Shown here piece after piece: positions 1 to 48,956 of a stretch of DNA of 64,000 nt. Position 1 is the first letter of the stretch, and each line of letters opens with the position of its first letter. Made by a program: the position numbers and the translations under genes. The notes under the pieces were generated by a model. The model did no database searches, was not told the origin of the DNA, and saw only the letters and a list, made by a program, of their open reading frames with translations. Location: NCBI RefSeq assembly GCF_988242995.1, contig NZ_OZ547043.1; one strand, given 5' to 3'.

Positions 1-648
1 CATGACGGGCGTGCTAAATACCATTTCTGGTTGTGGCGTGAGAAAATAGTAAACCCACAGACTTGCTCCCGTTAGTAGGACAAAAACGGTAATTCCGTTA
101 AATCCGCGTGCGTATTTATTCGTTACTGTGCAATAGGCTGCCCAGATAAACGCACCAATAAACGCCAGGAAATAACTCAATGGGCTGGTGGTGATATTAT
201 TGATGATTTCATCATAATGTAACCCATTGTCACCACCTAACACCCAGCAGACGCCAACCAGGGCTAATAATAATCCTGGTACAATCAGCCAGTTGGTTTT
301 CTGACCATTAAACAGAATGGCAAAGAGAATTGTCAGGCTGGGCCACAGATAGTTCACCATACCCACTTCAATCGCCTGATGACGGGTCGCCGCATATCCT
401 AAGGAAAGCGCCAGACAGATTTCATAGCTGACGAATAACAGACACCCGGCGAGTAAATAGCCTTTCGGGATCTGCCGAATACGCGGAAATCCAACCGTGA
501 AGATTAACAGCAGCCCGCTTAATGAATAGATAGCAGCTGCACCGCCGACCGGGCCGAGCCCCTCACTGACACCGCGAATCAATCCTACCATCGTGCTCCA
601 CAGGACGATCGCTATTAGCCCTATGAGCGTTGCTTTTTGTCGTGTCAT
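1..648 (-). CDS. yddG: Aromatic amino acid exporter YddG (DMT/EamA family), N-terminal part; gene runs off the window start
   Basis: Minus-strand ATG at 646-648; manual translation gives MTRQKATLIGLIAIVLWSTMVGL..., a hydrophobic multi-helix protein matching YddG as recalled. Not in the ORF track because no stop lies inside the window. Confidence 0.8.
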   Translation of the reverse strand, partial: MTRQKATLIGLIAIVLWSTMVGLIRGVSEGLGPVGGAAAIYSLSGLLLIFTVGFPRIRQIPKGYLLAGCLLFVSYEICLALSLGYAATRHQAIEVGMVNYLWPSLTILFAILFNGQKTNWLIVPGLLLALVGVCWVLGGDNGLHYDEIINNITTSPLSYFLAFIGAFIWAAYCTVTNKYARGFNGITVFVLLTGASLWVYYFLTPQPEMVFSTPVM

Positions 649-879
649 GCTCGCTGTTTTGTCTCTCTTGCCGTTAAAAATTAAGCTGAATTTTATAGCA
701 TTTTTTTAACTGGCCTGTCAGGCAGTGGTGCGTTTTTCTACCGCTATTGAGGTAGGTCAATTTGCGCAGGCGGATTATTTTGTGGCAAACACGTGTTCTT
801 TTTGATTTCGCGCAAAAAGATTCAGAATTTTACTGTTAGTTTCCTCGCGCAGTAATACCCCTGAAAAAAGAGGAAAGCA

Positions 880-3800
880 ATGGACGTCAGTCGCAGACAA
901 TTTTTTAAAATCTGCGCGGGCGGTATGGCTGGAACAACGGTAGCGGCATTGGGCTTTGCCCCGAAGCAAGCACTGGCTCAGGCGCGAAACTATAAATTAT
1001 TACGCGCGAAAGAGATCCGTAACACCTGCACATACTGTTCCGTAGGTTGCGGGCTATTGATGTATAGCCTGGGTGATGGCGCGAAAAACGCCAGAGAAGC
1101 GATTTATCACATTGAAGGTGACCCGGATCATCCGGTAAGCCGTGGTGCGCTGTGCCCGAAAGGGGCCGGTTTGCTGGATTACGTCAACAGCGAAAACCGT
1201 CTGCGCTACCCGGAATATCGTGCGCCAGGTTCTGACAAATGGCAGCGCATTAGCTGGGATGAAGCATTCTCCCGTATTGCGAAGCTGATGAAAGCTGACC
1301 GTGACGCTAACTTTATTGAAAAGAACGAGCAGGGCGTAACGGTAAACCGTTGGCTTTCTACCGGTATGCTGTGTGCCTCCGGTGCCAGCAACGAAACCGG
1401 GATGCTGACTCAAAAATTTGCCCGCTCCCTCGGGATGCTGGCGGTAGACAACCAGGCGCGCGTCTGACACGGACCAACGGTAGCAAGTCTTGCTCCAACA
1501 TTTGGTCGCGGTGCGATGACCAACCACTGGGTGGATATCAAAAACGCTAACGTCGTAATGGTAATGGGCGGTAACGCTGCTGAAGCGCATCCCGTCGGTT
1601 TCCGCTGGGCGATGGAAGCGAAAAACAACAACGATGCAACCTTGATCGTTGTCGATCCCCGTTTTACGCGTACCGCTTCTGTAGCGGATATTTACGCACC
1701 TATTCGTTCCGGTACGGACATTACGTTCCTGTCTGGCGTTTTGCGCTACCTGATCGAAAACAACAAAATCAATGCCGAATACGTTAAGCATTACACCAAT
1801 GCCAGCCTGCTGGTGCGTGATGATTTTGCTTTCGAAGACGGTCTGTTCAGCGGCTACGACGCTGAAAAACGCCAGTACGATAAATCGTCCTGGAACTATC
1901 AGTTCGATGAAAACGGCTATGCGAAACGCGATGAAACACTGACTCATCCGCGCTGTGTGTGGAACTTGCTGAAAGAGCACGTTTCCCGCTACACGCCGGA
2001 CGTCGTTGAAAACATCTGCGGTACGCCAAAAGCAGACTTCCTGAAAGTGTGTGAAGTGCTGGCCTCCACCAGCGCGCCGGATCGCACAACCACCTTCCTG
2101 TACGCGCTGGGCTGGACGCAGCACACCGTGGGTGCGCAGAACATCCGCACCATGGCGATGATCCAATTGCTGCTCGGTAACATGGGTATGGCTGGTGGCG
2201 GCGTGAACGCATTGCGTGGTCACTCCAACATTCAGGGCCTGACCGACTTAGGTCTGCTCTCAACCAGCCTGCCGGGTTATCTGACGCTGCCGTCAGAAAA
2301 ACAGGTTGATTTGCAGTCGTATCTGGAAGCGAATACGCCGAAAGCGACGCTGGCTGATCAGGTGAACTACTGGAGCAACTATCCGAAGTTCTTCGTTAGC
2401 CTGATGAAATCTTTCTACGGTGATGCTGCACAGAAAGAGAACAACTGGGGCTATGACTGGCTGCCGAAGTGGGACCAGACCTACGACGTCATCAAGTATT
2501 TCAACATGATGGATGAAGGCAAAGTCACCGGTTATTTCTGCCAGGGCTTTAACCCGGTTGCGTCCTTCCCGGACAAAAACAAAGTGGTGAGCTGCCTGAG
2601 CAAGCTGAAGTACATGGTGGTTATCGATCCGCTGGTGACTGAAACCTCTACCTTCTGGCAGAACCACGGCGAGTCGAACGATGTCGATCCGGCGTCCATT
2701 CAGACTGAAGTATTCCGTCTGCCTTCGACCTGCTTTGCTGAAGAAGATGGTTCTATTGCTAACTCCGGTCGCTGGTTGCAGTGGCACTGGAAAGGTCAGG
2801 ACGCGCCGGGCGAAGCGCGTAACGACGGCGAAATTCTGGCGGGTATCTACCATCATCTGCGCGAGCTGTACCAGGCCGAAGGTGGTAAAGGCGTAGAACC
2901 GCTGATGAAGATGAGCTGGAACTACAAGCAGCCGCACGAACCGCAATCTGACGAAGTAGCTAAAGAGAACAACGGCTACGCGCTGGAAGATCTCTATGAT
3001 GCCAATGGCGTGCTGATTGCGAAGAAAGGTCAGTTGCTGAGTAGCTTTGCGCATCTGCGTGATGACGGTACAACCGCATCTTCTTGCTGGATCTACACCG
3101 GTAGCTGGACAGAGCAGGGCAACCAGATGGCTAACCGCGATAACTCCGACCCGTCCGGTCTGGGGAATACGCTGGGATGGGCCTGGGCGTGGCCGCTCAA
3201 CCGTCGCGTACTCTACAACCGTGCTTCGGCGGATATCAACGGTAAACCGTGGGATCCGAAACGGATGCTGATCCAGTGGAACGGCAGCAAGTGGACGGGT
3301 AACGATATTCCGGACTTCGGCAATGCCGCGCCAGGTACACCAACCGGACCGTTTATCATGCAGCCGGAAGGGATGGGACGCCTGTTTGCCATCAACAAAA
3401 TGGCGGAAGGTCCGTTCCCGGAACACTACGAGCCAATCGAAACGCCGCTGGGCACTAACCCGCTGCATCCGAACGTGGTGTCTAACCCGGTTGTTCGTCT
3501 GTATGAACAAGACGCGCTGCGGATGGGTAAAAAAGAGCAGTTCCCGTATGTGGGTACGACCTATCGTCTGACCGAGCACTTCCACACCTGGACCAAGCAC
3601 GCGTTGCTCAACGCAATTGCTCAGCCGGAACAGTTTGTGGAAATCAGCGAAACGCTGGCGGCGGCGAAAGGCATTAATAATGGCGATCGTGTCACTGTCT
3701 CAAGCAAGCGTGGCTTTATCCGCGCGGTGGCGGTGGTAACGCGCCGTCTGAAACCGCTGAATGTAAACGGTCAGCAGGTTGAAACGGTGGGTATTCCAAT

Positions 3801-8889: not shown

Positions 8890-9600
8890 TAAATATCCTC
8901 CGGCATAGCCGGAGGTTTTTCAAATGCGCCTGTAAGGCTCTGTTACCAGCCGCGCCCTAACAGGCGCACACGATCTGACATTTGCATCCAACTTCGTTAC
9001 TTACGGCCCGTAAACGGGCTGCCCGGATAGGGAATCGATAACTGCTCTCCCATTTTATCCTCTTCAAGCTGGTGCTTTATGTAGTCCTGTATCTTCGCCG
9101 TGTTCTTACCCACCGTATCGACATAGTACCCTCGGCACCAGAACTCCCTGTTTCTGTATTTGAATTTCAAATCCCCAAACTGCTCGTAAAGCATCAGACT
9201 GCTTTTCCCTTTCAGATATCCCATAAAGCCGGATACGCTCATTTTGGGTGGGATTTCCACAAGCATATGGATATGATCTGCGCAGCACTCTGCTTCCAGA
9301 ATCCGTACGCTTTTCCACTCACACAGCTTTCTCAAAATACTGCCTATCGCCCTACGCTTCTCTCCGTAAAACGCCAGTCTTCGGTATTTCGGCGCAAAAA
9401 CTATGTGATATTTACAGTTCCAGCGGGTGTGCGCTAAGCTCTTTTCGTCCCCCATTGGGACCCCCTTTTGATTTCTTGTTTGACACTTGCAGTTGCCAGA
9501 CCGCAAGGTGTTTTAACAAATCAAAAGGGGTTTTAATAACTGGCTCAAAGCTGAAAGCTTTCCGGAACCCCCAGCCTAGCTGGGGGTTTTCTGTGCACAA
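8890..9600 (-). mobile_element. IS200-type insertion sequence (IS200/IS605 family), about 0.7 kb; boundaries approximate
   Basis: Contains a 152-aa Y1 transposase gene flanked by subterminal hairpins at both ends (8897-8915 and 9566-9588), plus a long inverted repeat at about 9461-9529 over the tnpA start region (assumed to occlude the RBS). Not present at this position in K-12 as I recall. Confidence 0.7.
8997..9455 (-). CDS. tnpA: IS200 transposase TnpA (HUH / Y1 single-strand transposase)
   Basis: Track ORF 8997-9506; internal start MGDEKSLAHTRWNCKYHIVFAPKYRR...HIHMLVEIPP (HuH motif)...Y, 152 aa, typical IS200 TnpA. Confidence 0.85.
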   Translation of the reverse strand: MGDEKSLAHTRWNCKYHIVFAPKYRRLAFYGEKRRAIGSILRKLCEWKSVRILEAECCADHIHMLVEIPPKMSVSGFMGYLKGKSSLMLYEQFGDLKFKYRNREFWCRGYYVDTVGKNTAKIQDYIKHQLEEDKMGEQLSIPYPGSPFTGRK

Positions 9601-10891: not shown

Positions 10892-10946
10892 AGCGTTGCC
10901 GTATGACGCGTCAGGCGCGTGATTGCCTGATGCGTTGTTAGCATCT

Positions 10947-11873
10947 CTACAGCGCCCGCCAGCACCGGATCTCACGTCCGTCCTCCCTTATTGTTAATGA
11001 TTGCCGGACTTCACATCCGTCGGTTGCCAGAGGGCAGCGTTCGCGGAAAAAACAGCCTTGTGGCAACGTGCGGTTTCCTGGTAGATCCGTTTTACGTAAT
11101 GCCCATTCTTCCTCCAGCGGTTTATCAATGGCGGGGAGGGAATCCAGCAATAATCGGGTGTATGGATGTGCCGGAGCTGTCAGCACCTGTTGCGCGTCTC
11201 CTAGTTCCACAATCTGCCCGAGATACATCACCGCCACCCGATCGCTCATATGACGTATCACCGAGACATTGTGTGAAATCAGCACATAAGTCAGCTCGCG
11301 ATTTTCCTGTAGCGTTACCAGTAAATTGAGGATCTGCGCCTGCACGGAGATATCCAGCGCCGAGGTTGGTTCATCAAGCACAATCACGTCAGGCTGCGAA
11401 GAGAGTGCTCTGGCAATGGCGATACGTTGCCGCTGCCCGCCTGAGAACGCATAAGGCAAGCGGTCGAGATACTCCGGACGAATACCCACCTGCACAGCCA
11501 GCTCCTCTGCCAACGCTCGCCGCTGTTGTTCACTACTACGCTTAGCAATCCAGAGCGGTTCCGTGATGATGCGCCACACCGGTAAGCGCGGATTAAGCGA
11601 AGAGAGCGGGTCCTGAAACACCATCTGCATAATGCGTTGTGATCCTGAACGGATGTACTGCCCGTGGCTCGGTTGCAGCATACCCATTAAAAGCTGTGCG
11701 AGGGTGCTTTTGCCGCAGCCTGACTCACCGACGATCCCTAAGGTTTCGCCACGACGGATCTGTAAATCAATACCATTGATGGCATGAACATGTTCCGTAG
11801 TTTTACCAAGCCAGTTTTTTCGGCCCGGGAAATTGATATGGACGTCGCGTAACGTTAATAACGTGTCAGACAC
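10947..11873 (-). CDS. ddpF: D,D-dipeptide ABC transporter ATP-binding protein
   Basis: Walker A GESGCGKST and ABC signature SGGQRQR; start placed at an internal GTG to give 308 aa, overlapping the ddpD stop by 8 nt. Confidence 0.85.
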   Translation of the reverse strand: MSDTLLTLRDVHINFPGRKNWLGKTTEHVHAINGIDLQIRRGETLGIVGESGCGKSTLAQLLMGMLQPSHGQYIRSGSQRIMQMVFQDPLSSLNPRLPVWRIITEPLWIAKRSSEQQRRALAEELAVQVGIRPEYLDRLPYAFSGGQRQRIAIARALSSQPDVIVLDEPTSALDISVQAQILNLLVTLQENRELTYVLISHNVSVIRHMSDRVAVMYLGQIVELGDAQQVLTAPAHPYTRLLLDSLPAIDKPLEEEWALRKTDLPGNRTLPQGCFFRERCPLATDGCEVRQSLTIREDGREIRCWRAL

Positions 11874-12852
11874 TAATGACCTCCTGCTGAGGATACCAAC
11901 AGGCGCAGCGGTGGTTGTTGTCACTACACGCTGTCAGCGCCGGGACGTTTTCACACTGTGCACCTGCCGCATAGCAACGATCGCGAAAAGCGCAGCCGTC
12001 AGGCAAATGGGTGAGGTTTGGTACCGTCCCCGGAATAGCGGGTAATGGCTGGCGCGGTATTCCATGTTCCGGTGCGCATTGCAGCAAACCAATGGTATAC
12101 GGATGCCGGGGATGATGGATAACGTCTGCCGTCACGCCGCTCTCAATCACGCTTCCGGCATACATCACGTAAACGCTATCGCACAGTTGCGACACCACGG
12201 CCATATCATGGCTGATGAACAGTACCGCAGTTCCACTGGCGCGGGCTTTATGTTTAAGCAGACGCAGTACCTGCAACTGTACCGTGACGTCCAGCGCCGT
12301 AGTCGGTTCGTCGGCAATAATCAATTGCGGCTCGCAGGAGAATGCCAGCGCAATCATTACCCGTTGGCGCATACCACCTGAAAGCTCAAACGGATAGCGC
12401 GACATAACTTCCACGGCATCCGGGATTTGCATCTCTTCCAGCAGGGCAATCGCTTTAGCTCTGGCTTCCCGACGACTTATTGGTTGATGATGGCGGATCA
12501 CGTCCATCATCTGAAGACCTATTCGACGTGTCGGATTAAGGGCGGTCATCGGTTCCTGAAAGATCATCGCCACTCGTGCGCCGCGCCACTGACGAAGCTG
12601 CTTTTCCCGAGCGTTAAGAGCATCTTCTCCCAGCAGTGAAATATGTCCCCGATCTACGCAATAACTGCCCGTCGGTAGCAGACGCATAATCAACATTGCA
12701 GTGACTGATTTACCTGAGCCGGATTCTCCCACCAGACCGACAATTTCACCGCGGTTAATCTGCAAGGACACATTGTTGAGCGCGTGAACATCACCGTTAA
12801 AACCGGGGAAACTCAAATGCAGCTGTTGAATGTCCAGAACGGGTTGGGTCAT
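11866..12852 (-). CDS. ddpD: D,D-dipeptide ABC transporter ATP-binding protein
   Basis: 328 aa; Walker A GESGSGKS and signature SGGMRQR; start overlaps the ddpC stop by 4 nt. Confidence 0.9.
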   Translation of the reverse strand: MTQPVLDIQQLHLSFPGFNGDVHALNNVSLQINRGEIVGLVGESGSGKSVTAMLIMRLLPTGSYCVDRGHISLLGEDALNAREKQLRQWRGARVAMIFQEPMTALNPTRRIGLQMMDVIRHHQPISRREARAKAIALLEEMQIPDAVEVMSRYPFELSGGMRQRVMIALAFSCEPQLIIADEPTTALDVTVQLQVLRLLKHKARASGTAVLFISHDMAVVSQLCDSVYVMYAGSVIESGVTADVIHHPRHPYTIGLLQCAPEHGIPRQPLPAIPGTVPNLTHLPDGCAFRDRCYAAGAQCENVPALTACSDNNHRCACWYPQQEVISV

Positions 12853-13745
12853 GACTGCTTTCCTCCTGCTTTCGGGTCAAGCAGATCGCGAATACCATCA
12901 CCAAAGAGATTAAACCCGACGGCGGTAAGCAAAATCGCTGCCCCCGGAAATGCGCAATACCACCATTGATCGAGCACATAGTTGCGACCATTCGCCACCA
13001 TCGCTCCCCATTCAGCACTCGGTTGTTGAGCACCCAGGCCAATAAATCCCAACGTGGCGGCCATTAAAATCGCGCTACCAATATCCAGCGATGCCTGCAC
13101 AATCAGCGGCGGCAGCGAGTTACGTAAAATATGCCAGTTGATCAGATGCCAGCGTGACGCACCAAAGGTTTTCGCCGCCTGAACGTAAGTGTACTGGCGG
13201 ACAACTAATGTTTGCCCCCGCGCCAGGCGCACATAAAAGGGAATTCGCACAATAGCAATCGCCAGCATGGCGTTAAACAAACTCGGCCCGAGAGCGGCTG
13301 CCAGTGCCATTGTCAGCACCAGCGAAGGAATCGACAGCATAATGTCCATGATGCGCATGATAATCGCGTCTGCGCGTCCGCCAAGCACACCGGATAGACA
13401 CCCGAGTAGCGACCCCATCATACCTGCAATGGCGACCACCACTAATCCGGCGAGAATTGATTGCTGACTGCCGACCAGTACGCGGCTAAACAGATCGCGT
13501 CCCACTTCATCGGTGCCAAACCAGTGCGCCGCAGAAGGCGGCAAAAGGCGGGCGGTTAAATCAATGGCGTTGGGATCATGCGTCGCCAGCCACGGTGAAA
13601 AAATCATCATCAGTAGCATTAATACAATGATGACTGCGCCGGTCACGGTAAGCGGGCTGCCTTTCAGCATCCATACCAGTTTTGCACCGTTAAATCGCGT
13701 TTGTTTTTGTGGGCGTACGGCGGACGTTTCCTCGCTTAGCATCAT
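12849..13745 (-). CDS. ddpC: D,D-dipeptide ABC transporter permease
   Basis: 298 aa, multi-TM, Opp/Dpp-type permease; 4-nt overlap with ddpB. Confidence 0.9.
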   Translation of the reverse strand: MMLSEETSAVRPQKQTRFNGAKLVWMLKGSPLTVTGAVIIVLMLLMMIFSPWLATHDPNAIDLTARLLPPSAAHWFGTDEVGRDLFSRVLVGSQQSILAGLVVVAIAGMMGSLLGCLSGVLGGRADAIIMRIMDIMLSIPSLVLTMALAAALGPSLFNAMLAIAIVRIPFYVRLARGQTLVVRQYTYVQAAKTFGASRWHLINWHILRNSLPPLIVQASLDIGSAILMAATLGFIGLGAQQPSAEWGAMVANGRNYVLDQWWYCAFPGAAILLTAVGFNLFGDGIRDLLDPKAGGKQS

Positions 13746-14764
13746 TCACCACCTCCACGTCCGATACGCGGATCAATCCACAAATAGAGCAAATCCACCA
13801 CCAGGTTCACCAGCACATAAGCAAACGAAACCACGACGGCAAATCCCATCACCGCAGGGAAGTCGAGCGCCTGTATTGATGTCACTACCCATGCCCCCAT
13901 TCCGGGCCAGGCAAAAACGGTTTCGGTGAGCACTGCGCCATACAACAAATCGCCCAGCGCCAGCCCCAATACGGTAATCGAGGGGATCAACGCATTCGGT
14001 AGCGCATAACATAAAACGATATACCAGCCGGGCAAGCCGCTGGCCCGGGCGGTACGAATGTAATCTTCACTCAATTGTTCCAGCATCGCTGAACGGATCT
14101 GGCGAGCGACAATTCCCAGGTGAACGAACGCCAGCGTTAATGCCGGTAAGATGAGATGTTGCAGCGCATTGAAGAAGACTTCACCGTTGCCTTCAAGCAG
14201 CGCATCGAGCAGATAAAAGCCGGTAACGTGCGTTGGTGGATCCAGCCAGTCATCAAGCCTTCCGCCGCCGGGAAGAATTTGCAGATGACCATAAAACAGC
14301 ACAATGACACCCAGCCCAAGCCAGAACGCAGGTGTGGAGATTCCGGTAATGGCCATTATTCGCACCAGATGATCCAGCCAGCGATTTCGCCAGACTGCAG
14401 AGAGTATGCCCAGCGGGATGCCAATCAGGAGTGCCAGCAGCAGGGCACAAAAAGCCAGTTCCAGCGTCGCCGGGAAAAATATGCGCAACTCTTCCAGCAC
14501 CGGACGCCCGGTACGAATGGATGTTCCCAGGTCACCCTGAAACAGGTCGCTGACGTAGCGGTAAAACTGTACATACAGTGGCTGGTCCAGTCCCAGTTGC
14601 TGGCGAATATTATCCACGATAGCATCGCTGGCGCGGTCACCCGCCAGTAACCGCGCCGGATCGCCGGGGATCAGGTGCGAGATAATAAACGTAATCACAC
14701 AGACGCCCGCCACCACGAGCACCAGCCCCCAGCAGCGTTGGCGTAAAATACTCCAGAAGGTCAC
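13742..14764 (-). CDS. ddpB: D,D-dipeptide ABC transporter permease
   Basis: 340 aa, multi-TM, Opp/Dpp-type permease. Confidence 0.9.
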   Translation of the reverse strand: MTFWSILRQRCWGLVLVVAGVCVITFIISHLIPGDPARLLAGDRASDAIVDNIRQQLGLDQPLYVQFYRYVSDLFQGDLGTSIRTGRPVLEELRIFFPATLELAFCALLLALLIGIPLGILSAVWRNRWLDHLVRIMAITGISTPAFWLGLGVIVLFYGHLQILPGGGRLDDWLDPPTHVTGFYLLDALLEGNGEVFFNALQHLILPALTLAFVHLGIVARQIRSAMLEQLSEDYIRTARASGLPGWYIVLCYALPNALIPSITVLGLALGDLLYGAVLTETVFAWPGMGAWVVTSIQALDFPAVMGFAVVVSFAYVLVNLVVDLLYLWIDPRIGRGGGE

Positions 14765-14765
14765 G

Positions 14766-16316
14766 TTATTTACTCATGGTATTGATATTGAAGACCTGTT
14801 CCAGCATGGGATTGAACACAAAGCCTTTCACCTCTTTGTTCATCGCCAGTTGGTAGTTTTTCTGGAACAGGTACACATAAGCAGCGTCATCAATGACGAT
14901 TTTCTGTGCCTGCTGGTAGTCCCGGGTACGCTGCGTCTGGTCGGTGGTCGCTAGCGCATTGCGCAGTAACTTATCGACCTCACTGTTTTCATAGAACGAG
15001 CGGTTACCCGGCAGACCTTTTTTGTCTGACTCAAACCAGTAATTCATAAACATATACGGGTCGGCAAAATCCGGACTCCAGTTGCCAATCGCAATGTCGT
15101 AATCACCTTTACCCACTCTGTCGCGCATGGTGGCGTTCGCCAGTTTTTCCAGCTTCACATTGATGCCCAGCTTGTTGAGACTGGATTGTGTCGCCAGAGC
15201 GATCGGTTCCCAGTTCGGGTCGTTATCGGAGTAGAGAAACGTCAGGCTGGTGGGTTTGCTCGTCACTTTATCCCATTCGGCTTTGGCTTTCGTTTCGTCA
15301 TGGTTGTATTGCATTGCCGTCGCATCGTATCCCCACATGCCTTCCGGAATCGGGCCGCGCATTTGTTTTCCGTTACCACTCAGAATGCCGTTAACCATAC
15401 CCTGATAATCGGTAGACCAGGAAATGGCCCGACGCAGATCCGCCTGATTAAGCGGCGCTTTGCTGTTATTCAGATACAGATAGGTGACGCGTAGTGACGG
15501 ATACTCTGCCACGTTGACTTTGTTTTCCTGCTTCAGTGCGTTGAGTTGATCCACCGGCAGCGCATCGGCAATGTCAATGTCGCCACGGGAGAGTTGCAGG
15601 CGACGGGAGGCACTTTCACCGATAATTTTTACCGATACCCGTTTAAAGTTCGGTTTATTGCCAGGGTAATGCGGATTTGGCACCAGAACTAATTGCTGAC
15701 CTTTTTGCCAGCTTTTCAGCATAAACGGTCCGGAGCCAGCGGTATTTTGCGCGAGGAAACCACGGGCATCATCGGCCGCATGTTCCTTTAAGACCGCCGG
15801 ATTGATAATGGATGCACCGTCATTCGCCAGCGTATAGAGGAACGGTGCGAATGGCTGGCTAAGGGTAAACCTCACTGTATGTTCGTCGGGAGCATCAATC
15901 TTTAAATCTTTGGGAAATGCTTCTGCTGGCCCCTGGCCGATTTTTAGTAACCGCTCAAAAGAGAGTTTTACTGCTTCGGCAGTGACAGGTGTGCCATCGG
16001 CAAATTTAGCATTGTCCTTCAGGGTGAACGTCCACTCTTTTTGATCGTCAGACGCTTTCCAGCTACTCGCCAGATCGCCTTCAACGTCGGTTGAGCCTTT
16101 ATCACCGTCCGTTTTGTACTGAACCAGTCGCTGATAAGACGGGTAGGTCACTGTCCAGTCGTTATTATCAATTGTCACCGCTGGGTCGAGGGTTTGTGGG
16201 TCGGCAGCTTTACCGATCACCAGCATATCTTTCGGTACGGCGGCGTGCGCAACCGGCATTGTTGTGGCAAGGACGATCGCGAGCAATGTAGGACGAAACG
16301 AAATCGATCTCTTCAT
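14766..16316 (-). CDS. ddpA: D,D-dipeptide periplasmic substrate-binding protein
   Basis: Track ORF 14766-16451; start placed at MKRSISFRPTLLAIVLATTMPVAHA (signal peptide) giving 516 aa; family 5 solute-binding protein. Confidence 0.88.
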   Translation of the reverse strand: MKRSISFRPTLLAIVLATTMPVAHAAVPKDMLVIGKAADPQTLDPAVTIDNNDWTVTYPSYQRLVQYKTDGDKGSTDVEGDLASSWKASDDQKEWTFTLKDNAKFADGTPVTAEAVKLSFERLLKIGQGPAEAFPKDLKIDAPDEHTVRFTLSQPFAPFLYTLANDGASIINPAVLKEHAADDARGFLAQNTAGSGPFMLKSWQKGQQLVLVPNPHYPGNKPNFKRVSVKIIGESASRRLQLSRGDIDIADALPVDQLNALKQENKVNVAEYPSLRVTYLYLNNSKAPLNQADLRRAISWSTDYQGMVNGILSGNGKQMRGPIPEGMWGYDATAMQYNHDETKAKAEWDKVTSKPTSLTFLYSDNDPNWEPIALATQSSLNKLGINVKLEKLANATMRDRVGKGDYDIAIGNWSPDFADPYMFMNYWFESDKKGLPGNRSFYENSEVDKLLRNALATTDQTQRTRDYQQAQKIVIDDAAYVYLFQKNYQLAMNKEVKGFVFNPMLEQVFNINTMSK

Positions 16317-16329
16317 GACAGTTTCCTGA

Positions 16330-16911
16330 TTAACTGGCGTGCTGTGTGCCAGGGGATATAAAACAGGTGAATTGATCAGCGAGTAGTGGGTAACTCGCTG
16401 CCTGGGGTAATTCGAAGTGCCACCATTCGCTCGGGATACCGACAAAGCCACCGCCAGTCATAATCGCATTCAGCAACAGCCGATTGCGCTGAGCGGCGGG
16501 CGGGACGGAAGGGTGATAAGCATGGGAACGTTCGTGCATTTCATCGAACTCTGCACCCATATCCAGTATGTTCCCGTGCTCATCACGAAGCGTCAGGTCG
16601 ATCGCCGTGCCACGGCTGTGATTAGAACCGACCGTCACATCAACAACATATTGCGGGTCTGGGCAGGCTTGCCACAACATCGCCTGTGCTTGTTGTGGGC
16701 GATACGCATCGTAAATCACCAGTTGTAAGCCTGACAGCTGGGCGATACTGATACTTTTCGCCAGCGCGGTAATCGCATCCTTGTGTAACAGACAACGCGC
16801 TTGCTGATAAATAGCTTTACCTGTGATGTTATCAGCGCAGGCGTATTTCAATTCGATCTCCAGATCAGGGAAGATCACGGCTAAATCAACCAGTTCGGTG
16901 GTATCCGACAT
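16330..16911 (-). CDS. ddpX: D-alanyl-D-alanine dipeptidase (VanX homologue)
   Basis: 193 aa with zinc-peptidase-like SNHSRGTAIDL and EWWHFE segments; first gene of the ddp operon. Confidence 0.9.
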   Translation of the reverse strand: MSDTTELVDLAVIFPDLEIELKYACADNITGKAIYQQARCLLHKDAITALAKSISIAQLSGLQLVIYDAYRPQQAQAMLWQACPDPQYVVDVTVGSNHSRGTAIDLTLRDEHGNILDMGAEFDEMHERSHAYHPSVPPAAQRNRLLLNAIMTGGGFVGIPSEWWHFELPQAASYPLLADQFTCFISPGTQHAS

Positions 16912-16955
16912 AAACGGTTCCTGTATAAGACAAAAATTGCTGCGCTTTCCGCTTA

Positions 16956-16971
16956 TGCAGATCTCATGCCA
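16956..16971 (-). promoter_or_regulatory. Putative sigma54 (-24/-12) promoter for ddpX
   Basis: Minus-strand sequence TGGCATGAGATCTGCA has GG and GC at the canonical spacing (consensus TGGCAC-N5-TTGCA), about 45 nt upstream of the ddpX ATG. Confidence 0.5.
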
Positions 16972-17168
16972 TGCCGGGATAAGCGCCAGAATGCTGGCTT
17001 AAAGTTATATTTTTTAACTTTTGATCAACATTTGTGCAGCGTAGTGCAGTTTTGGTGCAAGAGGGGAAGTTAAGGAAGGAATCTCCCGGAATCGTAGCTG
17101 AAATCACAGTATTTAAGTGACAGTGTCACGTTAAAGGAAAACCCGCGAGTGCGGGCGAGAGGAATTTG

Positions 17169-19568
17169 TCAGATTTTCAGCGGTAACACGCTGCTCATCC
17201 AGCCTGGAATTTCTTCGGCGGGTAGGGGGCGGGAAAAGAAATATCCCTGAATAACGCGACAGTGGATCTTGCGTAGCATCTCAAATTGCTCTTTGGTTTC
17301 GACGCCTTCCGCCACGACGGTTAAATTAAGGCTTTGCCCAATGCTGGTAATGGCTTCAAGTAAGGCAAGGATGCGTTTTTCGGTCAGACAACGATCGACA
17401 AAACTTTTGTCAATTTTGATTTCCGTCACCGGAAGACTGACTAAGCGGGATAATCCGGAAAAGCCCGTGCCAAAATCATCTACCGATAAACCCACGCCCA
17501 TATCGCGCAGGATCTGAATGCGCTTAAAGATTTCGGTATCGTGTTCCATCATCATGCTTTCCGTGATTTCCACCGTCAGCTGGTGGCCGTCAATACCCCA
17601 GGCGTGCATTGCATCAGACACCTGATTAGGCAGTTGATTACTGCGAAAGTGCAGCGCCGACAAGTTAACGGATAACGCCGGGATATGAATATTCTGGCTA
17701 CGCCATTCTGCTAACTGACGACAAGCTTCCGCGATGACCCAGCGTCCAATATTTTCGATTTCACCGATCTCTTCTGCGAGAGGAATAAACCGTGAAGGGG
17801 GCACATGACCATGCAGGGGATCGTGCCAGCGAGCAAGGGCTTCGATGCCGTAGAGTTCACCCGTTTCTGCGAAGATTTGCGGCTGGTAAACCAGTTTTAG
17901 TTGGTTATTGCTAATCGCTTCTTTCAGCGCCGCGCCTAAAACCAAACGCTCTTTTACCATTTCGTTCATCGCCGGGCTGAAGAACTGCCAGCCGTTACCG
18001 CCATTCTTGCGAATATAATCCATTGCATTGTGAGCAGTGGAGAGCAGGTAATCGCGGTTTTTACCCACGTCGTAGCTGATGCCAATGCTCAAGGTGAGCG
18101 GGAATGGTTTATCGTCAATCATTATCGGCTTGCTGACCACATTCCGTAGCTCATCGGCGATTTGGGTTATGTTACTGACGTCGTTTTCCAGGCTCACGAG
18201 GACAAACTGCGTACCTTCGATACGACAGAGATACTGATCCGGTTTGAGTTTTTCACGAAAGCGATTGACCACTTCCAGCAATGCCTGATCGGCCCACGCA
18301 TAGCCAAGGCTATCAATCACATCCTGAATATGGTCAACACCGATGAGATACACCACCGGAGAGACGGCTTTGTCGACCAGGTCATCGAGGTAATTGTGCA
18401 GGTTATTGCGATTTGGCAGACCGGTCATCGGATCAAATTGGATGAGTTGTTCAATATGCTGACGGCTTTTTTCCTGTTCCAGCGCCAGCGCGGCCATATG
18501 CTGGCTGATATCTGCCACGCGTTCGATAAAGGCGCTGGTTTCTGCTCCTGACGAGGTTTTAATTTGCAGGATCCCCGCCGGCGCGCCATCACGCTGACGA
18601 ATGGTCGCTGACCAGCTTTGCGCATTTTGAACTTCTGTACCGTGCGAAGATGACGCCCAGTGTATCGGCATCCCGTTGCGCAGCGCGAACAGCGAAACAT
18701 GCGATTCGTTGAGTACAGATTCGATGTTACGACAAATGATTTCCCCCATTTCATGAAATGGCGGGCTGCTGCACATGGCGGCGAGAATATTGCCTTCAAG
18801 CTGGCGGATTTGCCGTTCTTCGGTGATATCCGAGAAAGTCATTACCAGGTTCTGCAGATGCGCGAGCACGTCATAAACCGGGCTGATAGAGGCTTTAATC
18901 CAGATTTTTTCACCGGTGCGCGTCAACAGCAGAAATTCATCCTGATCGCGGGCGGTTTTCCATAGCAACTGTTGTAAACGAATGCGGTTATCGGCAGGGA
19001 ATTCAGGAATGTTCAGGAGTGAATCGGGCTGCATACCGCTGGCTTCGCTAATGCAGTAACCAAACATTTCGGTAAATGCGCGATTGCACTGCACAATATG
19101 GCGTTCCGGATCGAGGACAATCACCGGTCGGTCGAGATGGTCAACGGCAATAATCAATTGTCGGGTCTGTTCTTTTTGCGCCATTTCTACGCTGGCATCC
19201 CGTACCAGCGCCAGGTAATAAACTTTCCCCTCGGCGCTCACTTTCGATAGCGCAAAACGGGTCCAGATTTTACTGCCGTCTTTTTTCTCCAGCTGCAGCT
19301 CCCGACTCATCCCCTCGACGCGCGCTTTACCGCCTTCACGGTTGTGACGGATGTATTCAGGATGCGCAGGACGCAAATCCCGCGGAATCAGCATATCAAT
19401 GTTATTGCCAATGACTTCTTCACGTTTGTACCCCCAGAGCTTCTCTGCGGCTGGGTTGAAAAACATCACTTCATCATTTTCGTTAATTAACACCGCGCCC
19501 ATCATATTTTGCTCAAGGGCGGGGAAAAAAATGCCATCGGCGGCATTATCCGCATCGGTTAGCTTCAT
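17169..19568 (-). CDS. dosP: Heme-regulated c-di-GMP phosphodiesterase (PAS-PAS-GGDEF-EAL), direct oxygen sensor
   Basis: Track ORF 17169-19592 with start at MKLTDADNAADGIFFPALEQNMMGAVLIN (799 aa); EAL-domain motifs in the C-terminal part. Confidence 0.9.
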   Translation of the reverse strand: MKLTDADNAADGIFFPALEQNMMGAVLINENDEVMFFNPAAEKLWGYKREEVIGNNIDMLIPRDLRPAHPEYIRHNREGGKARVEGMSRELQLEKKDGSKIWTRFALSKVSAEGKVYYLALVRDASVEMAQKEQTRQLIIAVDHLDRPVIVLDPERHIVQCNRAFTEMFGYCISEASGMQPDSLLNIPEFPADNRIRLQQLLWKTARDQDEFLLLTRTGEKIWIKASISPVYDVLAHLQNLVMTFSDITEERQIRQLEGNILAAMCSSPPFHEMGEIICRNIESVLNESHVSLFALRNGMPIHWASSSHGTEVQNAQSWSATIRQRDGAPAGILQIKTSSGAETSAFIERVADISQHMAALALEQEKSRQHIEQLIQFDPMTGLPNRNNLHNYLDDLVDKAVSPVVYLIGVDHIQDVIDSLGYAWADQALLEVVNRFREKLKPDQYLCRIEGTQFVLVSLENDVSNITQIADELRNVVSKPIMIDDKPFPLTLSIGISYDVGKNRDYLLSTAHNAMDYIRKNGGNGWQFFSPAMNEMVKERLVLGAALKEAISNNQLKLVYQPQIFAETGELYGIEALARWHDPLHGHVPPSRFIPLAEEIGEIENIGRWVIAEACRQLAEWRSQNIHIPALSVNLSALHFRSNQLPNQVSDAMHAWGIDGHQLTVEITESMMMEHDTEIFKRIQILRDMGVGLSVDDFGTGFSGLSRLVSLPVTEIKIDKSFVDRCLTEKRILALLEAITSIGQSLNLTVVAEGVETKEQFEMLRKIHCRVIQGYFFSRPLPAEEIPGWMSSVLPLKI

Positions 19569-19592
19569 GATTACCTCTGCATCCTGGCGCAT

Positions 19593-20975
19593 CTAAAGAC
19601 TGGCTTTCCAGAGTTCAACACGGTTTCTACCTCGTCTTTTGGCGATATACAGAGCTTCATCGGCTATTTGAATGAGGCGCTCATAGTCAGGATGACCATT
19701 AAACATGGCGGCACCGATGGAAAGTGAGAGGGCAATATCTTCGCCGTTTGCGGCTTTCAGTTTGGTTTTCTCCACCCGACTGCGAATACGTTCTGCGGTA
19801 CGTAACGTTTCGTTTTCAGAAGCTTCAGTCAAAACAATGATAAATTCATCGCCCCCGTAGCGGAAAACATAATCACTACTGCGGACGTTGTCATAAAAGG
19901 CCTGAGAGACTTTACGCAGAATTTCATCGCCAGTGTTATGGCCCCACGTATCGTTGATCTCTTTGAATTTATCAACGTCAATAATCAGCACTGACAGCGG
20001 TGTACCGGTCCGGTTGGCATGGGCAATTTCGCGTTTGAAGATCGTCGGCAGGAAACGGCGGTTAAGTAATTTCGTCAGTACATCCATACCGACTTCGTGG
20101 CGCGATACTTCTTCAAACAATTCACGCAGCAAGGTAATAATTTGCGATACGGTATTTCTTATCTGTAATAAAAATTTCACCCGTAAACTTCTGTTATTCA
20201 AATTCCTGGTGTTACGCATGGTTTGATTGAAAATACCGTCAAAATCCTGAATCAGACGGGAGATATGGCCCACTTCGGCTATGCCGCTAAAATAATGTCG
20301 ACCTTTATGGTTAAACCACAGGCCAAAATCAGCCTGGCTTAAAGGCAAACTACTGCCTAAATCAGAATCCAGCAGGACTTTATAGATAATATCTATTTCC
20401 CATGAAAGTAATGAGGCTATTTGCCGCTCTTTTTCTTCTTCGGCATTTTCCAGTAACGAGAAGATACGATAGTTTTCATCTTCTTTTGAGGCACTACTGT
20501 CACTAAAGGTAAACGCGCGGGTCATCACTTCCATAGCGATATCAATACTGTTAATAGAGAAATGGTAGACCTGAAGTTTTTCTGCGGCGGAATAATCCGA
20601 AGAGAAGATGACCGGATAGAGGATTTTTTTCAGCACCCGAAACCCCATCTCGACAATTTCTACCGGAATTCCTATGCGGGCATGCACTTCCGCAACGGTA
20701 TGCTGGATTTGTATTAGCCTTTCGACATCGTCAACCTGGGCAGAAAGCACGTTAATAATCCAGCGTTCCATCGCACTTTTCAACTGCCGCTCAACTTGTT
20801 CATTACTCAAGAATTCTTCGGCATGCGGGTCGATACGGACAATTCGGTAAAACTCAATACTCAGATAATGGGCATGCGCAACGGCAATTTCCGCGGCTTT
20901 AGCACGAATGAGCGGATCTGCTTGTTCGACAAGCCCGGTCCACTCATCTTTCATTCTTTTAAAATACATCTCCAT
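19593..20975 (-). CDS. dosC: Globin-coupled diguanylate cyclase
   Basis: 460 aa; N-terminal globin sensor region and C-terminal GGDEF (RYGGDEFIIVL). Confidence 0.9.
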   Translation of the reverse strand: MEMYFKRMKDEWTGLVEQADPLIRAKAAEIAVAHAHYLSIEFYRIVRIDPHAEEFLSNEQVERQLKSAMERWIINVLSAQVDDVERLIQIQHTVAEVHARIGIPVEIVEMGFRVLKKILYPVIFSSDYSAAEKLQVYHFSINSIDIAMEVMTRAFTFSDSSASKEDENYRIFSLLENAEEEKERQIASLLSWEIDIIYKVLLDSDLGSSLPLSQADFGLWFNHKGRHYFSGIAEVGHISRLIQDFDGIFNQTMRNTRNLNNRSLRVKFLLQIRNTVSQIITLLRELFEEVSRHEVGMDVLTKLLNRRFLPTIFKREIAHANRTGTPLSVLIIDVDKFKEINDTWGHNTGDEILRKVSQAFYDNVRSSDYVFRYGGDEFIIVLTEASENETLRTAERIRSRVEKTKLKAANGEDIALSLSIGAAMFNGHPDYERLIQIADEALYIAKRRGRNRVELWKASL

Positions 20976-21350
20976 AATTCACACCCTTATAAGGCTGGGA
21001 AAGCAGACGGAATCAAAACGAAACGCAACGTGCGAGATCGACTAACTGCACCATATTCTCCTGAAATATGAAGATATACTGAAAAGAAATAAGCGACTTA
21101 GGACAGTTTCAATCTACGCTACTGTTCTTCAGAAGAGTATAGCCCATCGTAATTATTTTTCGGTGACAGCGAATATCGTATGTTTTTTCATATTCATACA
21201 TTTTTATTAGGGGATTTATGACTGTTTAACTAAGTGTGGTTAATTGCGTAGTTAATTTGACTTAAGTAAGCATGATTACTAGTGGGATATTTCAAGAGGG
21301 TAACAAGCCGGGGGGAAAGCACCGGCTTGTTACAAAGTAAGAATGGGAGT

Positions 21351-45357: not shown

Positions 45358-45398
45358 TTTTAATTCCGATTGAGTTTATTATTAATTAGGTCACTGGC

Positions 45399-46118
45399 TT
45401 ATTGCATGGTTGCCTTAATACGCGGAGTTAATGCACCGTAATCATTGATCGTCTGAAAACTGATATCCCCGGTTGCAGCATGCGGGATATCCACCGATAC
45501 TTCACCTTTTGGCGGCACCATGGTGTTTGGGAGATTGCTATTTCCTGCTTTCATATTTGTTACGGTAATGAAGTAGGGCGTTGGATTAATAAGAGTGAGT
45601 TTGCTGCCGCTGCGACGAAACCGAAGCATTGCAGGCGCTTCTTCAGGTGCCATTGCCAGGTTCGTGGGGCGATAAAACATTTTTATGCGGCTAATAATTG
45701 CCAGCTGTAATGTATTCTCATTCTTCTGATCTTTTTCCATAGCAGGAATAGCTTTAACATTAACCCAGAACAGGCTTTCACGGTCGCCTGGTAACTGATG
45801 ATTAGTGGCGTTGATTATCCGCAGCGTATTCTCTTTTTTACCTTGCATGGAAAAAAGCGGTGGCGTAATGACAAACTGGGTGTCTTTTTGGTCACCCTCA
45901 TTTTCTATCCATGACTGAATGAGATAGACACTGGCAGGATCATTATTCGTGACAGGCAATAAAACCTGTTTCTGGTTTGCCGGATAAATTACCCGCGTCG
46001 CACCCAGTGCGACAGCTGCGTTGGCAACGGTGCTATGGCAAGCAAAGAGCAATAAAAGTAACACTGTCGCCATAAAGGAAATAGAGTAGGGGGTACGCCT
46101 AGTTTGCATCTGATGCAT
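45399..46118 (-). CDS. Periplasmic fimbrial chaperone (PapD/FimC family)
   Basis: 239 aa; signal peptide; chaperone-like N-terminal region and C-terminal domain. Confidence 0.8.
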   Translation of the reverse strand: MHQMQTRRTPYSISFMATVLLLLLFACHSTVANAAVALGATRVIYPANQKQVLLPVTNNDPASVYLIQSWIENEGDQKDTQFVITPPLFSMQGKKENTLRIINATNHQLPGDRESLFWVNVKAIPAMEKDQKNENTLQLAIISRIKMFYRPTNLAMAPEEAPAMLRFRRSGSKLTLINPTPYFITVTNMKAGNSNLPNTMVPPKGEVSVDIPHAATGDISFQTINDYGALTPRIKATMQ

Positions 46119-46471
46119 TCTCCATGTGTTAAGAGGATAAGCGGGGAAACCGTTACATCAGACAATCGGTAAATGTTGCTAATACATTGGCGACTCGCCG
46201 GGTTTCCAGACTTAATGCGTTTGTAATAAATGTTGGTTCTCTTTTAATAGGAAAACATTGCTACAAAGTAAATATTTTAAATAACAGTAAGTTTAACTAC
46301 TGTTGTTTATTGATCGTTTAGATATTATGTGATTTTTTCATGCCGCTCCAAAACACAAACTATTCCTCATTAATAATGAGATGAACATTGGTGAATTGCT
46401 CGGGTGTGCGTAGCCATGCCACACACACCCTGTTTCAATTTCAGATGACGTATAGCCACCTTAAGATTGAA

Positions 46472-47035
46472 TTATAGATATTGAACTTTGAAGGTCGCAT
46501 CAGCGTTTGCAGTACCAGCTACTGACTGCCCGAGAGCAATATAACGAGCCTGGAACGGCAGTATATTCGTGCCATCAATCAAGTCAGTTTTAGCGCTAAA
46601 AGTGGCACCATCAAGTATTAATACCTCACCCGTACGGTCCAAAATTTGAATACCGACATTTTGGGCAGAGCCTGCCGCTGAACTCTGCAGCGCTAACGTA
46701 TCGTCATTACTGGTGACAGTAGTACCCAGGAATGCAACAGCTGCATTACTGGAAACATTGGTATCACAATCATTCAGCTTGATATTGAAGCCAACGGCGG
46801 AGCTGAGGTCACCCGCTTTAGCCAGACGAGAAGAACGGACCTGACCCAGCTCAACCGTTTGGTTCATTGATTCTGAATCAATCGCACAAGCGGCATTTAC
46901 CACTTCACCTTTAAAATGAATAACACCGCCATTAACAGTGGTCGTTACTGATTCATCACCCTCGGCTGCGCTTACCGCAGCAGACGACATCGCCAACACA
47001 GAAACGACAATCATACCGACATGTTTGAGTTTCAT
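46472..47035 (-). CDS. Major fimbrial subunit (type 1 / F9-like pilin)
   Basis: Track ORF 46472-47083 with internal start [23 protein letters not shown]; Cys pair and C-terminal ...TFKVQYL typical of FimA-like pilins. Confidence 0.8.
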
Positions 47036-47468
47036 AATTCTCCAGAATTTATATTTAAGTAGCTGAATAAAGAAAGTTAACAATTAAGTCATTCTGTTAT
47101 TGCTTATAAAACAAGAATCATTCTTGATGGGATATTGCCCTGAGAATATAGTTTCCAGGGTTATTACATTTCACGAAGAACGATAATATCTTTAAATTAC
47201 AAGGACACCTAATCACAACAAGTTTATTGCAGCACTTGTTGTAGAGGGTATTTGCAAAGACATTTTATGTCGCTAAATAACATTACGATTTCATTATGCA
47301 TGTTATTTATAAACAGCGACTAAACAGAATATTATTGCGAACAAGGGAAGTGTCAGGAAAGGTCAAGAGCGGCCAATGGTTTATATGGCTATAAAACATT
47401 AGCTATGGTTAATGTTTGACTGGTGTAACTAACACGGAATTGCTCTAAACAGATAAGTGCAGGGTTTA

Positions 47469-47723
47469 TTAAAGCTGACCGACAGACTTTCTTAACCCGG
47501 TAATATCTCTCTTAGGTGACTCTCCAAACATCCGCGAATATTCCCGACTGAAATGGGATAAGCTTTCGTAACCGACAGCATAGGCTGCAGTGGTGACATC
47601 GTAATGTTCATTCAGCATCAGTCGCCTGGCTTCATTGAGGCGTAGCCATTTCTGATACCGGAGTGGACTCATTCCCGCAAGCTGTCTGAAGTGTTGATGG
47701 AAAGTGGGGGTGTTCATTTGCAC
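47469..47723 (-). pseudogene. yneL: Remnant of an AraC-family regulator (C-terminal HTH only)
   Basis: 84-aa ORF is only the AraC C-terminal HTH domain (LRYQKWLRLNEARRLM...GYESLSHFSREYSRMFGESP); no N-terminal domain ORF upstream. Confidence 0.65.
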
Positions 47724-48003
47724 GCGGTTTGCCAGCCTGACTCTTCAACGCAGGGAAGATGCGGCAAACGGCAAACCTGCATACCAGCCAGCCTATATCC
47801 GGTATGCACAGGCCAATCATGAAAGAGGAGAGGCTTTATGTTCTGGAACCCTGAAGTAATAACGACGACTGGAAAATCGCTTCGCATCACTCAAATTCCA
47901 TTTAACTATTCTGGGTTTGAGGGATATACATAATTGACTTCAGCACCAGAAACAGCATAACAAACTGTTTTAAATGGATATTAATCAAATGGCGATTCAA
48001 ACT

Positions 48004-48038
48004 CACAGTTATGAACTCAGTTTTGGTTCATAACTGTG
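48004..48038. repeat. Perfect 13-bp inverted repeat with 9-bp spacer
   Basis: cacagttatgaac-tcagttttg-gttcataactgtg; a related palindromic 10-mer gttcatgaac lies about 40 nt further on. Confidence 0.8.
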
Positions 48039-48941: not shown

Positions 48942-48956
48942 GTTAATCCTTACTGG

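Follow-up and report, generated by a model that had tools for sequence, protein, structure and literature searches.

The question raised by this locus is whether it carries an intact pair of oxygen-responsive c-di-GMP enzymes. The original prediction placed a globin-coupled diguanylate cyclase and a haem-PAS phosphodiesterase back-to-back at positions 17169-20975, as a self-contained control unit. The window, by which we mean the whole stretch of 64,000 nucleotides analyzed, comes from an E. coli chromosome; it is collinear with 1.546-1.599 Mb of K-12 MG1655 and 97-98% identical to it. The open reading frame listing places two long tandem ORFs, dosC followed by dosP, at exactly the limits predicted (Table 1), and the second of them spans 17169-19592 (807 aa) when it is read from its first ATG. 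Back-to-back here means head-to-tail, with both genes on the minus strand; dosC lies directly upstream of dosP and is separated from it by a short spacer bearing a ribosome-binding site, as expected of the dosCP operon. The locus is flanked by ddpX and digH, as in K-12. Of 5426 complete E. coli genomes, 5413 have a match to the 4.5-kb dosCP region, at 95-99.4% identity and with dosP and dosC as the annotation.

The similarity of the predicted proteins to DosC and DosP is far beyond chance. The NCBIfam equivalog for DosP, NF008467, reaches 1643.6 bits, well above its cutoff of 857, with residues 9-807 aligning to model positions 1-800; the full-length DosP structures PDB 9cdr, 9bgv, 9cmf and 9clo match at E=0, and the DosC domain structures (PDB 4zva-4zvh, "Diguanylate cyclase DosC") match at E=8e-104 to 4e-77. 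Nothing in the sequence contradicts the identification. Given the collinearity with K-12, the equivalog score, the Pfam architectures, the near-identity to solved structures and the integrity of the ORFs, the region is almost certainly the intact chromosomal dosCP operon of E. coli (dgcO-pdeO, formerly yddV-yddU), with DosP starting at MKLTDAD and an inferred promoter at CTATACT.

Table 1. Features of the dosCP locus, in window coordinates; DosP domain residues follow the 807-aa numbering.
Feature	Position	Strand	Basis or remark
CTATACT, putative sigma-S-type -10 element	21136..21142	-	161 nt upstream of dosC ATG
yddY small ORF, 13 aa, dosC leader	21013..21054	-	b4746 in K-12; peptide identical here
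dosC (dgcO, yddV), globin-coupled diguanylate cyclase, 460 aa	19593..20975	-	ORF, Pfam, PDB 4zva-4zvh
DosC sensor globin domain, residues 26-155	20511..20900	-	Pfam PF11563 Protoglobin, E=1.8e-10
DosC middle domain, residues 180-289	20109..20438	-	Pfam PF21118 DosC_2nd, E=1.1e-49
DosC GGDEF catalytic domain, residues 297-452	19620..20087	-	Pfam PF00990, E=4.8e-51
dosC-dosP spacer, 24 nt	19569..19592	-	carries dosP RBS AGAGGT, 19578-19573
dosP (pdeO, yddU, Ec DOS), haem-PAS c-di-GMP phosphodiesterase, 799 aa	17169..19568	-	NCBIfam NF008467, PDB
DosP haem-binding PAS-A, residues 33-132	19197..19496	-	Pfam PAS_9; PDB 1v9y, 1s66
DosP second PAS (PAS-PAC), residues 150-261	18810..19145	-	Pfam PAS_4, E=6.4e-14
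DosP degenerate GGDEF domain, residues 386-533	17994..18437	-	Pfam GGDEF, E=6.3e-22
DosP EAL phosphodiesterase domain, residues 555-789	17226..17930	-	Pfam EAL, E=1.3e-69; PDB 4hu3
Hairpin and T-rich tail	17131..17156	-	13 nt past dosP stop; GCCCGC-ACTC-GCGGGT, then TTTCCTTT

All the domain types predicted (globin, GGDEF, PAS and EAL) were found by Pfam in the two proteins. The globin domain of DosC is near-identical to PDB 4zva/4zvb, with one substitution (P22L) within the aligned range, and its haem-pocket residues are all present: His98 on the proximal side, Tyr43 and Gln60 on the distal. The middle domain aligns over the full length of the DosC_2nd model and is matched by PDB 4zvc. Residues 297-460 are identical to the crystallized domain PDB 4zve, and this identity, together with the GGDEF motif at 374-378 (RYGGDEF, 372-378), indicates a catalytically competent GGDEF domain; an RxxD sequence, RSSD at 365-368, lies five residues upstream of the motif. 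DosP combines a PAS-PAC domain, a degenerate GGDEF domain and a complete EAL domain. In the 807-aa numbering, its haem pocket has proximal His77, distal Met95 and the O2-stabilizing Arg97, each in the expected sequence context. The motif of its GGDEF domain reads EGTQF at 459-463, a silent cyclase domain that is the normal state for DosP (PMC11543664). The catalytic set of its EAL domain is complete, with EALAR at 584, SVNLS at 641 (N643), EITE at 675 (E675), DDFGTG at 705, KIDK at 726 (K726), EGVE at 762 and QGY at 782 (Q782). The motifs whose loss was to refute the prediction, the GGDEF of DosC (374) and the EAL of DosP (584), are in place, and so are the haem ligands of both proteins, which were to be checked.

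The closest known system is that of K-12, where DosC (DgcO/YddV, b1490) and DosP (PdeO/YddU/Ec DOS, b1489) share with the window the locus, gene order, strand relation and spacer; protein lengths, domains and key residues are also equal, and nucleotide identity is 98.5% and 97.9%. The only differences are conservative amino-acid substitutions, three in DosC (P22L, I189L and I200V) and four among the 799 residues of DosP (T183S, A311T, I313V and L501V), and none of the seven hits a haem ligand or catalytic motif. Since L22 of DosC is also present in E. albertii and other Escherichia loci, P22 of K-12 is probably the derived state.

DosC is composed of a haem-globin sensor, a helical middle domain and an active GGDEF cyclase converting two GTP into c-di-GMP, and DosP is a dimeric protein with a haem-PAS, a second PAS, the silent GGDEF and an EAL phosphodiesterase converting c-di-GMP into pGpG. 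For the K-12 proteins, published work describes deoxy DosP with Met95 as the sixth haem ligand; O2 displaces it, Arg97 stabilizes the bound O2, and the distant EAL domain turns on (PMC11543664, PMC4263535). DosC has a higher affinity for O2, with a Kd of about 20 uM (PMC11543664). DosC and DosP bind each other and are found together with RNase E and PNPase (PMC5635695, PMC8846402), and they would therefore supply and remove c-di-GMP locally, tuned by oxygen, during stationary phase, the operon being RpoS-induced at that time. For this allele, haem binding, O2-stimulated c-di-GMP hydrolysis and cyclase activity are expected by analogy, carried over from the K-12 proteins.

Published reports conflict on how DosC responds to O2. 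According to one proposal, O2 flips the pair between net synthesis and net degradation, DosC being on under anoxic conditions, with no ligand on its haem, and DosP on under oxic conditions; unliganded DosC, whose Kd for O2 is about 20 uM, has been described as making c-di-GMP, and a push-pull rheostat around PNPase has been put forward (PMC11543664). Against this polarity, O2 is listed as an activator of both DosC/DgcO and DosP (PMC4263535; census review PMC8846402). The alternative is that both enzymes are O2-activated with different affinities. We regard the opposed polarity as possible but less likely than not. The sequence is compatible with either model, since the same haem-pocket residues are expected in both.

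BpeGReg (Bordetella), AvGReg (Azotobacter) and DgcO (Pectobacterium) share the globin, middle and GGDEF domains and are O2-dependent cyclases (PMC8846402, PMC5549716), but they lack a partner phosphodiesterase, whereas the window holds the paired form. AxPDEA1 from Komagataeibacter (Acetobacter) xylinus resembles DosP in that a haem-PAS sensor controls an EAL phosphodiesterase (PMC4263535, PMC8846402); its published polarity is opposite, as O2 inhibits AxPDEA1 and activates DosP. Rhizobial FixL shares the haem-PAS fold, its NCBIfam model matching DosP residues 34-144 at E=3.3e-15, far below the cutoff, but its output is a histidine kinase instead of an EAL domain, and FixL stands outside the DosP family.

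RpoS control of the dosCP operon has been published (PMC5635695, PMC11543664). The sequence GATGG(G/A)CTATACT is conserved in K-12, in three divergent Escherichia loci and in two Citrobacter loci (L010 and L011), while the surrounding intergenic region has diverged. A scan for the sigma-70 consensus found no promoter between digH and dosC, and in the whole region only 3 sites against 7.3 expected; a literature search for a mapped dosCP transcription start site returned nothing useful. We infer the CTATACT promoter from its conservation plus a sigma-S-like reading of it. The terminator scan showed no strong terminator between dosC and dosP, which fits co-transcription, and the hairpin beyond dosP, with a folding energy of -10.9 kcal/mol, likely marks the end of the operon. 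Transcription would begin near CTATACT, about 160 nt upstream of dosC, and run through the yddY mini-ORF, dosC and dosP to end at that hairpin. Together, the conserved element, the lack of a strong terminator between the genes and the terminal hairpin are consistent with RpoS-controlled co-transcription. An Rfam scan of the whole window at gathering thresholds found nothing in or beside dosCP; its only matches were a SECIS element at 1462-1520 (in fdnG) and STnc490 at 9465-9588.

A second terminator-like hairpin, at 19547-19530, is followed by a run of seven T inside the dosP coding sequence. We do not claim it as an internal attenuator: it is weak (-8.5 kcal/mol, three GC pairs), coding and absent in Citrobacter, and the scan gave 6 such elements in total against 4.9 by chance. 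That this hairpin and its T run, which span codons 8-15 of dosP, limit read-through and so fix the DosC:DosP ratio is less likely still than a regulatory role of the dosC leader.

The dosC leader might be a regulatory device and not a small-protein gene. The ribosome-binding site of yddY and its ATGGTG are conserved across Escherichia, but the ORF has 13 codons in E. coli and just three in the divergent Escherichia loci L006-L008 (MVP, MVL and MVR, each followed by a stop), so that translation of a minimal uORF, and not the peptide made, might tune dosCP expression. We consider this unlikely. Induction of yddY through PhoQP at low Mg2+ has been reported, and uORF tuning, if true, could link dosCP to that induction.

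The start of DosP depends on which of two ATG codons is used. The stop codon of dosC, TAG (19595-19593), directly abuts an ATG (19592), and a second ATG, preceded by AGAGGT, follows eight codons on (19568), so that the spacer also encodes the first eight codons (MRQDAEVI) of the historical 807-aa DosP. The 24-nt gap originally predicted is correct for the annotated MKLTDAD start and becomes 0 nt for the historical form. Since the ORF reaches the first ATG in the same frame as dosC, a TAGATG junction with strict translational coupling could be envisaged, and the 807-aa form, which begins with MRQDAEVI, was the construct behind the haem-domain and cryo-EM structures (PDB 9bgv) and sets the historical residue numbering. 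However, the first ATG has no good ribosome-binding site before it, and L008, a divergent Escherichia locus, has ATT in its place; the sole other change within the 24 nt, CAG to CCG, would alter the amino acid; and Citrobacter has a spacer of 29-30 nt that lacks this ATG and is out of frame. Apart from GGGG in L010 and ATGAATCTA in L011, the GAGG box and ATGAAGCTA are conserved throughout the loci compared. Furthermore, both the NCBIfam model and the NCBI annotation begin at MKL, dosP being annotated in E. coli strain MEW and K-12 MG1655 from the second ATG (2400 nt, 799 aa). The whole spacer is identical in K-12, and its core GCAGAGGTAA recurs in Escherichia and in most of the Citrobacter loci, L010 having GCAGGGGTAA. 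On this cross-species comparison, which favours the annotated start, we rejected the 807-residue product with its 0-nt coupling as very improbable; translation of DosP would start at the MKLTDAD ATG, with the spacer's conserved GAGG as its ribosome-binding site. A DosC-DosP read-through fusion is suggested by the shared frame and the single TAG between the genes, but Citrobacter loses this frame relation and we therefore treat it as coincidence.

It is extremely unlikely, and refuted at the sequence level, that this copy is decaying or has become inactive, as the locus has in Escherichia lineages with the NU14-type dosC remnant or the deletion of the E. albertii type strain: both ORFs are as long as in K-12, all catalytic and haem-pocket residues are present, dN/dS measured against K-12 and three divergent Escherichia lineages lies at 0.025-0.035 for dosC and dosP alike, and a promoter-like element, a ribosome-binding site and a terminator hairpin are all in the window.

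The two-gene unit stood up to analysis, but its self-containment was overstated, because the pair associates with RNase E and PNPase, contacts PdeR (PMC5635695, PMC8846402) and has known partners and outputs encoded elsewhere, and because each gene also occurs singly in other lineages. The dosC-dosP arrangement is found in K-12, other Escherichia, Citrobacter, Phytobacter and one Trabulsiella paralogue. In contrast, DosC orthologues in Enterobacter, Kluyvera and some Trabulsiella loci, 60-78% identical over their whole length, stand alone, with no gene resembling dosP within 5 kb. Conversely, roughly one complete E. coli genome in five has dosP without dosC; B2-type strains keep dosP with dosC almost fully deleted, and in NU14, as in some 1150 complete genomes, dosC is reduced to 165 nt. 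The type strain of E. albertii carries a deletion of 1.7 kb that fuses dosC to dosP out of frame.

As the original prediction held, dosCP is well characterized, among the best-characterized oxygen-to-c-di-GMP pathways, with crystal and cryo-EM structures for both proteins. This copy is wild type, with nothing unusual about it; it carries little weight as a discovery, and its practical value is a clean annotation. The start codon of dosP can be assigned to MKLTDAD by comparison, and the haem numbering of the literature (His77, Met95 and Arg97) refers to the 807-codon ORF, which exceeds the annotated protein by eight residues. The dosC-dosP pair is complete in this strain, whereas most of dosC is missing from B2-type E. 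coli.

The interval 17169-20975 lies on an E. coli chromosome that is collinear with K-12 MG1655 1,546,522-1,599,086 at ~97-98% identity, and it is filled exactly by two long ORFs in a mechanical ORF listing, so that the limits originally predicted for dosCP are borne out. The pair is flanked by ddpXABCDF on one side and by digH, gadC and gadB on the other, and the 4.5-kb dosCP region is matched in 5413 of the 5426 complete E. coli genomes, the top match having 99.4% identity. G+C content is 0.41-0.46 across dosC and its upstream region (window 19750-21250), compared with about 0.50-0.55 in the flanking genes.

Pfam domains place a globin and GGDEF protein beside a haem-PAS and EAL protein, as had been proposed, and the residues expected to serve these functions are present. 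The haem pockets contain His77, Met95 and Arg97 in DosP (numbering of the 807-aa protein) and Tyr43, Gln60 and His98 in DosC. DosC retains GGDEF at 374 and, five residues before it, RSSD, and DosP retains its EAL domain, with the phosphodiesterase motifs EALAR 584, SVNLS 641, EITE 675, DDFGTG 705, KIDK 726, EGVE 762 and QGY 782. The GGDEF-like domain within DosP has the motif EGTQF, its normal silent state (PMC11543664). DosP matches the NCBIfam equivalog "oxygen-sensing cyclic-di-GMP phosphodiesterase DosP" at 1643.6 bits, where the cutoff is 857. The closest solved structures, all near-identical to the window proteins, are full-length 9cdr, 9bgv, 9cmf and 9clo, EAL domain 4hu3 and haem domains 1v9y and 1s66 for DosP, and globin 4zva and 4zvb, middle domain 4zvc and GGDEF domain 4zve for DosC. 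Both proteins equal their K-12 counterparts in length and differ from them by T183S, A311T, I313V and L501V in DosP (799-aa numbering) and P22L, I189L and I200V in DosC. Comparison with K-12 and with three divergent Escherichia lineages gives Nei-Gojobori dN/dS values of 0.025-0.035 for dosC and dosP alike, which indicates strong purifying selection on both genes. The analysis confirms the original observation and supports its interpretation; dosCP is a known system, the window copy is wild type, and only three points are slightly new: the comparison of dosP start codons, a conserved CTATACT upstream of dosC, and the length pattern of yddY.

Features of the window, with domain positions in protein residues
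Feature	Position	Strand	Description
SECIS_3	1462-1520	+	Rfam, 84 bits, inside fdnG
tnpA ORF	8997-9506		Y1_Tnp; IS200-family insertion
STnc490	9465-9588		Rfam; in IS200-family insertion
dosP ORF	17169-19592	-	807 aa from first ATG
dosC	19593-20975	-	460 aa
yddY small ORF	21054-21013	-	dosC leader; annotated in K-12
CTATACT element	21142-21136	-	161 nt before dosC ATG
DosC domains	26-155; 180-289; 297-452		Protoglobin; DosC_2nd; GGDEF (Pfam)
DosP domains	~33-132, 150-261; 386-533; 555-789		two PAS; GGDEF; EAL (Pfam)

The junction reads ...CTT TAG ATG CGC CAG GAT GCA GAG GTA ATC ATG AAG CTA..., and DosP might begin at either of two codons. The first ATG adjoins the dosC stop codon directly and yields the 807-residue DosP of the literature, with a gap of 0 nt. 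The second (19568) lies eight codons on, preceded by AGAGGT at normal ribosome-binding distance; NCBI annotates dosP from it in E. coli MEW and K-12 MG1655 (2400 nt, 799 aa), leaving 24 nt between the genes, and the NCBIfam DosP alignment begins at ORF residue 9. The predicted 24-nt gap is therefore correct for the annotated start. For comparison, DosC relatives were scanned at one genome per species, 5 kb was taken on each side, DosP was located by tblastn and the junctions were read. The spacer is also 24 nt in the three divergent Escherichia loci, in one of which (L008) the upstream ATG is ATT; the only other Escherichia substitution turns CAG into CCG, a non-synonymous change were the spacer translated. 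Four Citrobacter loci have a spacer of 29-30 nt that is out of frame and lacks the upstream ATG. Apart from single-base variants in two Citrobacter loci (L010, L011), every junction keeps both the GCAGAGGTAA box and the ATGAAGCTA start. Taken together, the junctions look like a non-coding spacer that holds a ribosome-binding site and unlike a stretch of eight translated codons, and the MKLTDAD start with its 24-nt gap is the better-supported reading. The 807-aa protein is a historical construct, explicitly so in the cryo-EM paper (PMC11543664), and because it was used, published DosP residue numbers are shifted by 8. The dosC and dosP ORFs share a reading frame, one TAG apart (window 19593-19595, minus strand); amber read-through would give a DosC-DosP fusion, but the shared frame is probably coincidence, since Citrobacter does not keep it.

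Downstream, 13 nt after the dosP stop, a GC-rich hairpin (GCCCGC-ACTC-GCGGGT, -10.9 kcal/mol) is followed by TTTCCTTT. Upstream, digH ends in its own strong hairpin (-19.6 kcal/mol), beyond which, toward dosC, the intergenic region is AT-rich. A sigma-70 consensus scan of this digH-dosC region found no promoter, and an alignment of Escherichia and Citrobacter, including L010 and L011, shows a conservation island there, GATGG(G/A)CTATACT. Its CTATACT resembles the sigma-S-type -10 consensus, and we infer that it is a candidate -10 element of this type for the operon. Published work describes dosCP as dependent on RpoS, with induction in stationary phase (PMC5635695, PMC11543664). The leader ORF yddY, reported to be PhoQP-dependent and induced by low Mg2+ (PMC11429745), is 13 aa long in K-12, MEW and the window, and only 3 codons long in the divergent Escherichia loci L006 (3567), L007 (3681) and L008 (4920), namely MVP*, MVL* and MVR*. 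Its ribosome-binding site and ATGGTG start are retained despite this shortening, which suggests that the peptide itself is not conserved and would fit a regulatory mini-ORF. Within dosP codons 8-15 (window 19524-19547, minus strand) lies a further hairpin, AATGCCG-CCGA-TGGCATT followed by T7, which resembles a terminator, though a weak one (-8.5 kcal/mol). Escherichia loci retain it, with a stem-strengthening synonymous GAT-to-GAC change, and Citrobacter lacks it.

The module is less self-contained than had been claimed, as dosC occurs alone in other genera and dosP without an intact dosC in some E. coli. DosC orthologues at 60-78% identity are found in Kluyvera, Enterobacter and several Trabulsiella loci, where tblastn detected no dosP-like gene within 5 kb. 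Nine comparison loci (L012, L015-L019, L021, L022, L024), including one Citrobacter isolate, carry a dosP-less dosC; Enterobacter has an apparent tRNA gene on the opposite strand directly after dosC, and Trabulsiella has several dosC paralogues, with dosP beside only some. In the B2-type E. coli NU14, window 19758-21016 is deleted except for a 47-nt fragment, leaving a 165-nt dosC remnant (L003 5504-5668) upstream of intact dosP, and the whole ddp operon (window 10936-17089) is absent. The same 69%-coverage pattern occurs in ~1150 of the 5413 complete genomes, and DosC is described as frequently absent in E. coli isolates in a passage of PMC5635171 that cites Povolotsky and Hengge 2016. In the type strain of E. 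albertii, NBRC 107761 (L014 5001-7091), a ~1.7-kb deletion corresponding to window 18195-19919 has fused the GGDEF region of dosC, out of frame, with the GGDEF-like region of dosP, and on this sequence its dosCP is a pseudogene. The ancestral pair is complete in the window.

Elsewhere, an IS200-family insertion (window 8893-9599) lies between maeA and sra, a site at which none of the 5426 complete E. coli genomes has this element. An 8-kb cluster absent from K-12 (47678-55683, between yneL and hipA) is complete in 428 of the 5426; it comprises a LysR regulator and divergently oriented genes for two aldo/keto reductases, a carboxymuconolactone decarboxylase-family protein, an ABM monooxygenase, a flavodoxin-like protein and a DJ-1/PfpI protein. 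Window 42706-47214 encodes a fimbrial subunit, a PapD-type chaperone and an 883-aa fimbrial usher of full length, at the position of a 3.3-kb deletion that truncates ydeT in K-12. SECIS_3 in fdnG is as expected, because formate dehydrogenase N has a selenocysteine codon.

Architecture and residues are read from the sequence, and the probable mechanism is carried over from publications on the near-identical K-12 proteins. In deoxy DosP the iron is coordinated by His77 and Met95; O2 displaces Met95 with the assistance of Arg97, and the conformational change is relayed to the active site of the EAL domain over ~180 Å of connecting helices, raising catalysis and not substrate binding (PMC11543664). 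The Kd of DosC for O2 is ~20 uM, and DosP responds from ~75 uM up (PMC11543664). Papers differ on the polarity of DosC, O2 being its activator in some (PMC4263535, PMC8846402) and unliganded DosC making c-di-GMP in a push-pull model in another (PMC11543664); the sequence is compatible with either. DosC and DosP form a complex and are found in association with PNPase and RNase E (PMC8846402, PMC5635695), and they would therefore supply and remove c-di-GMP locally, tuned by oxygen.
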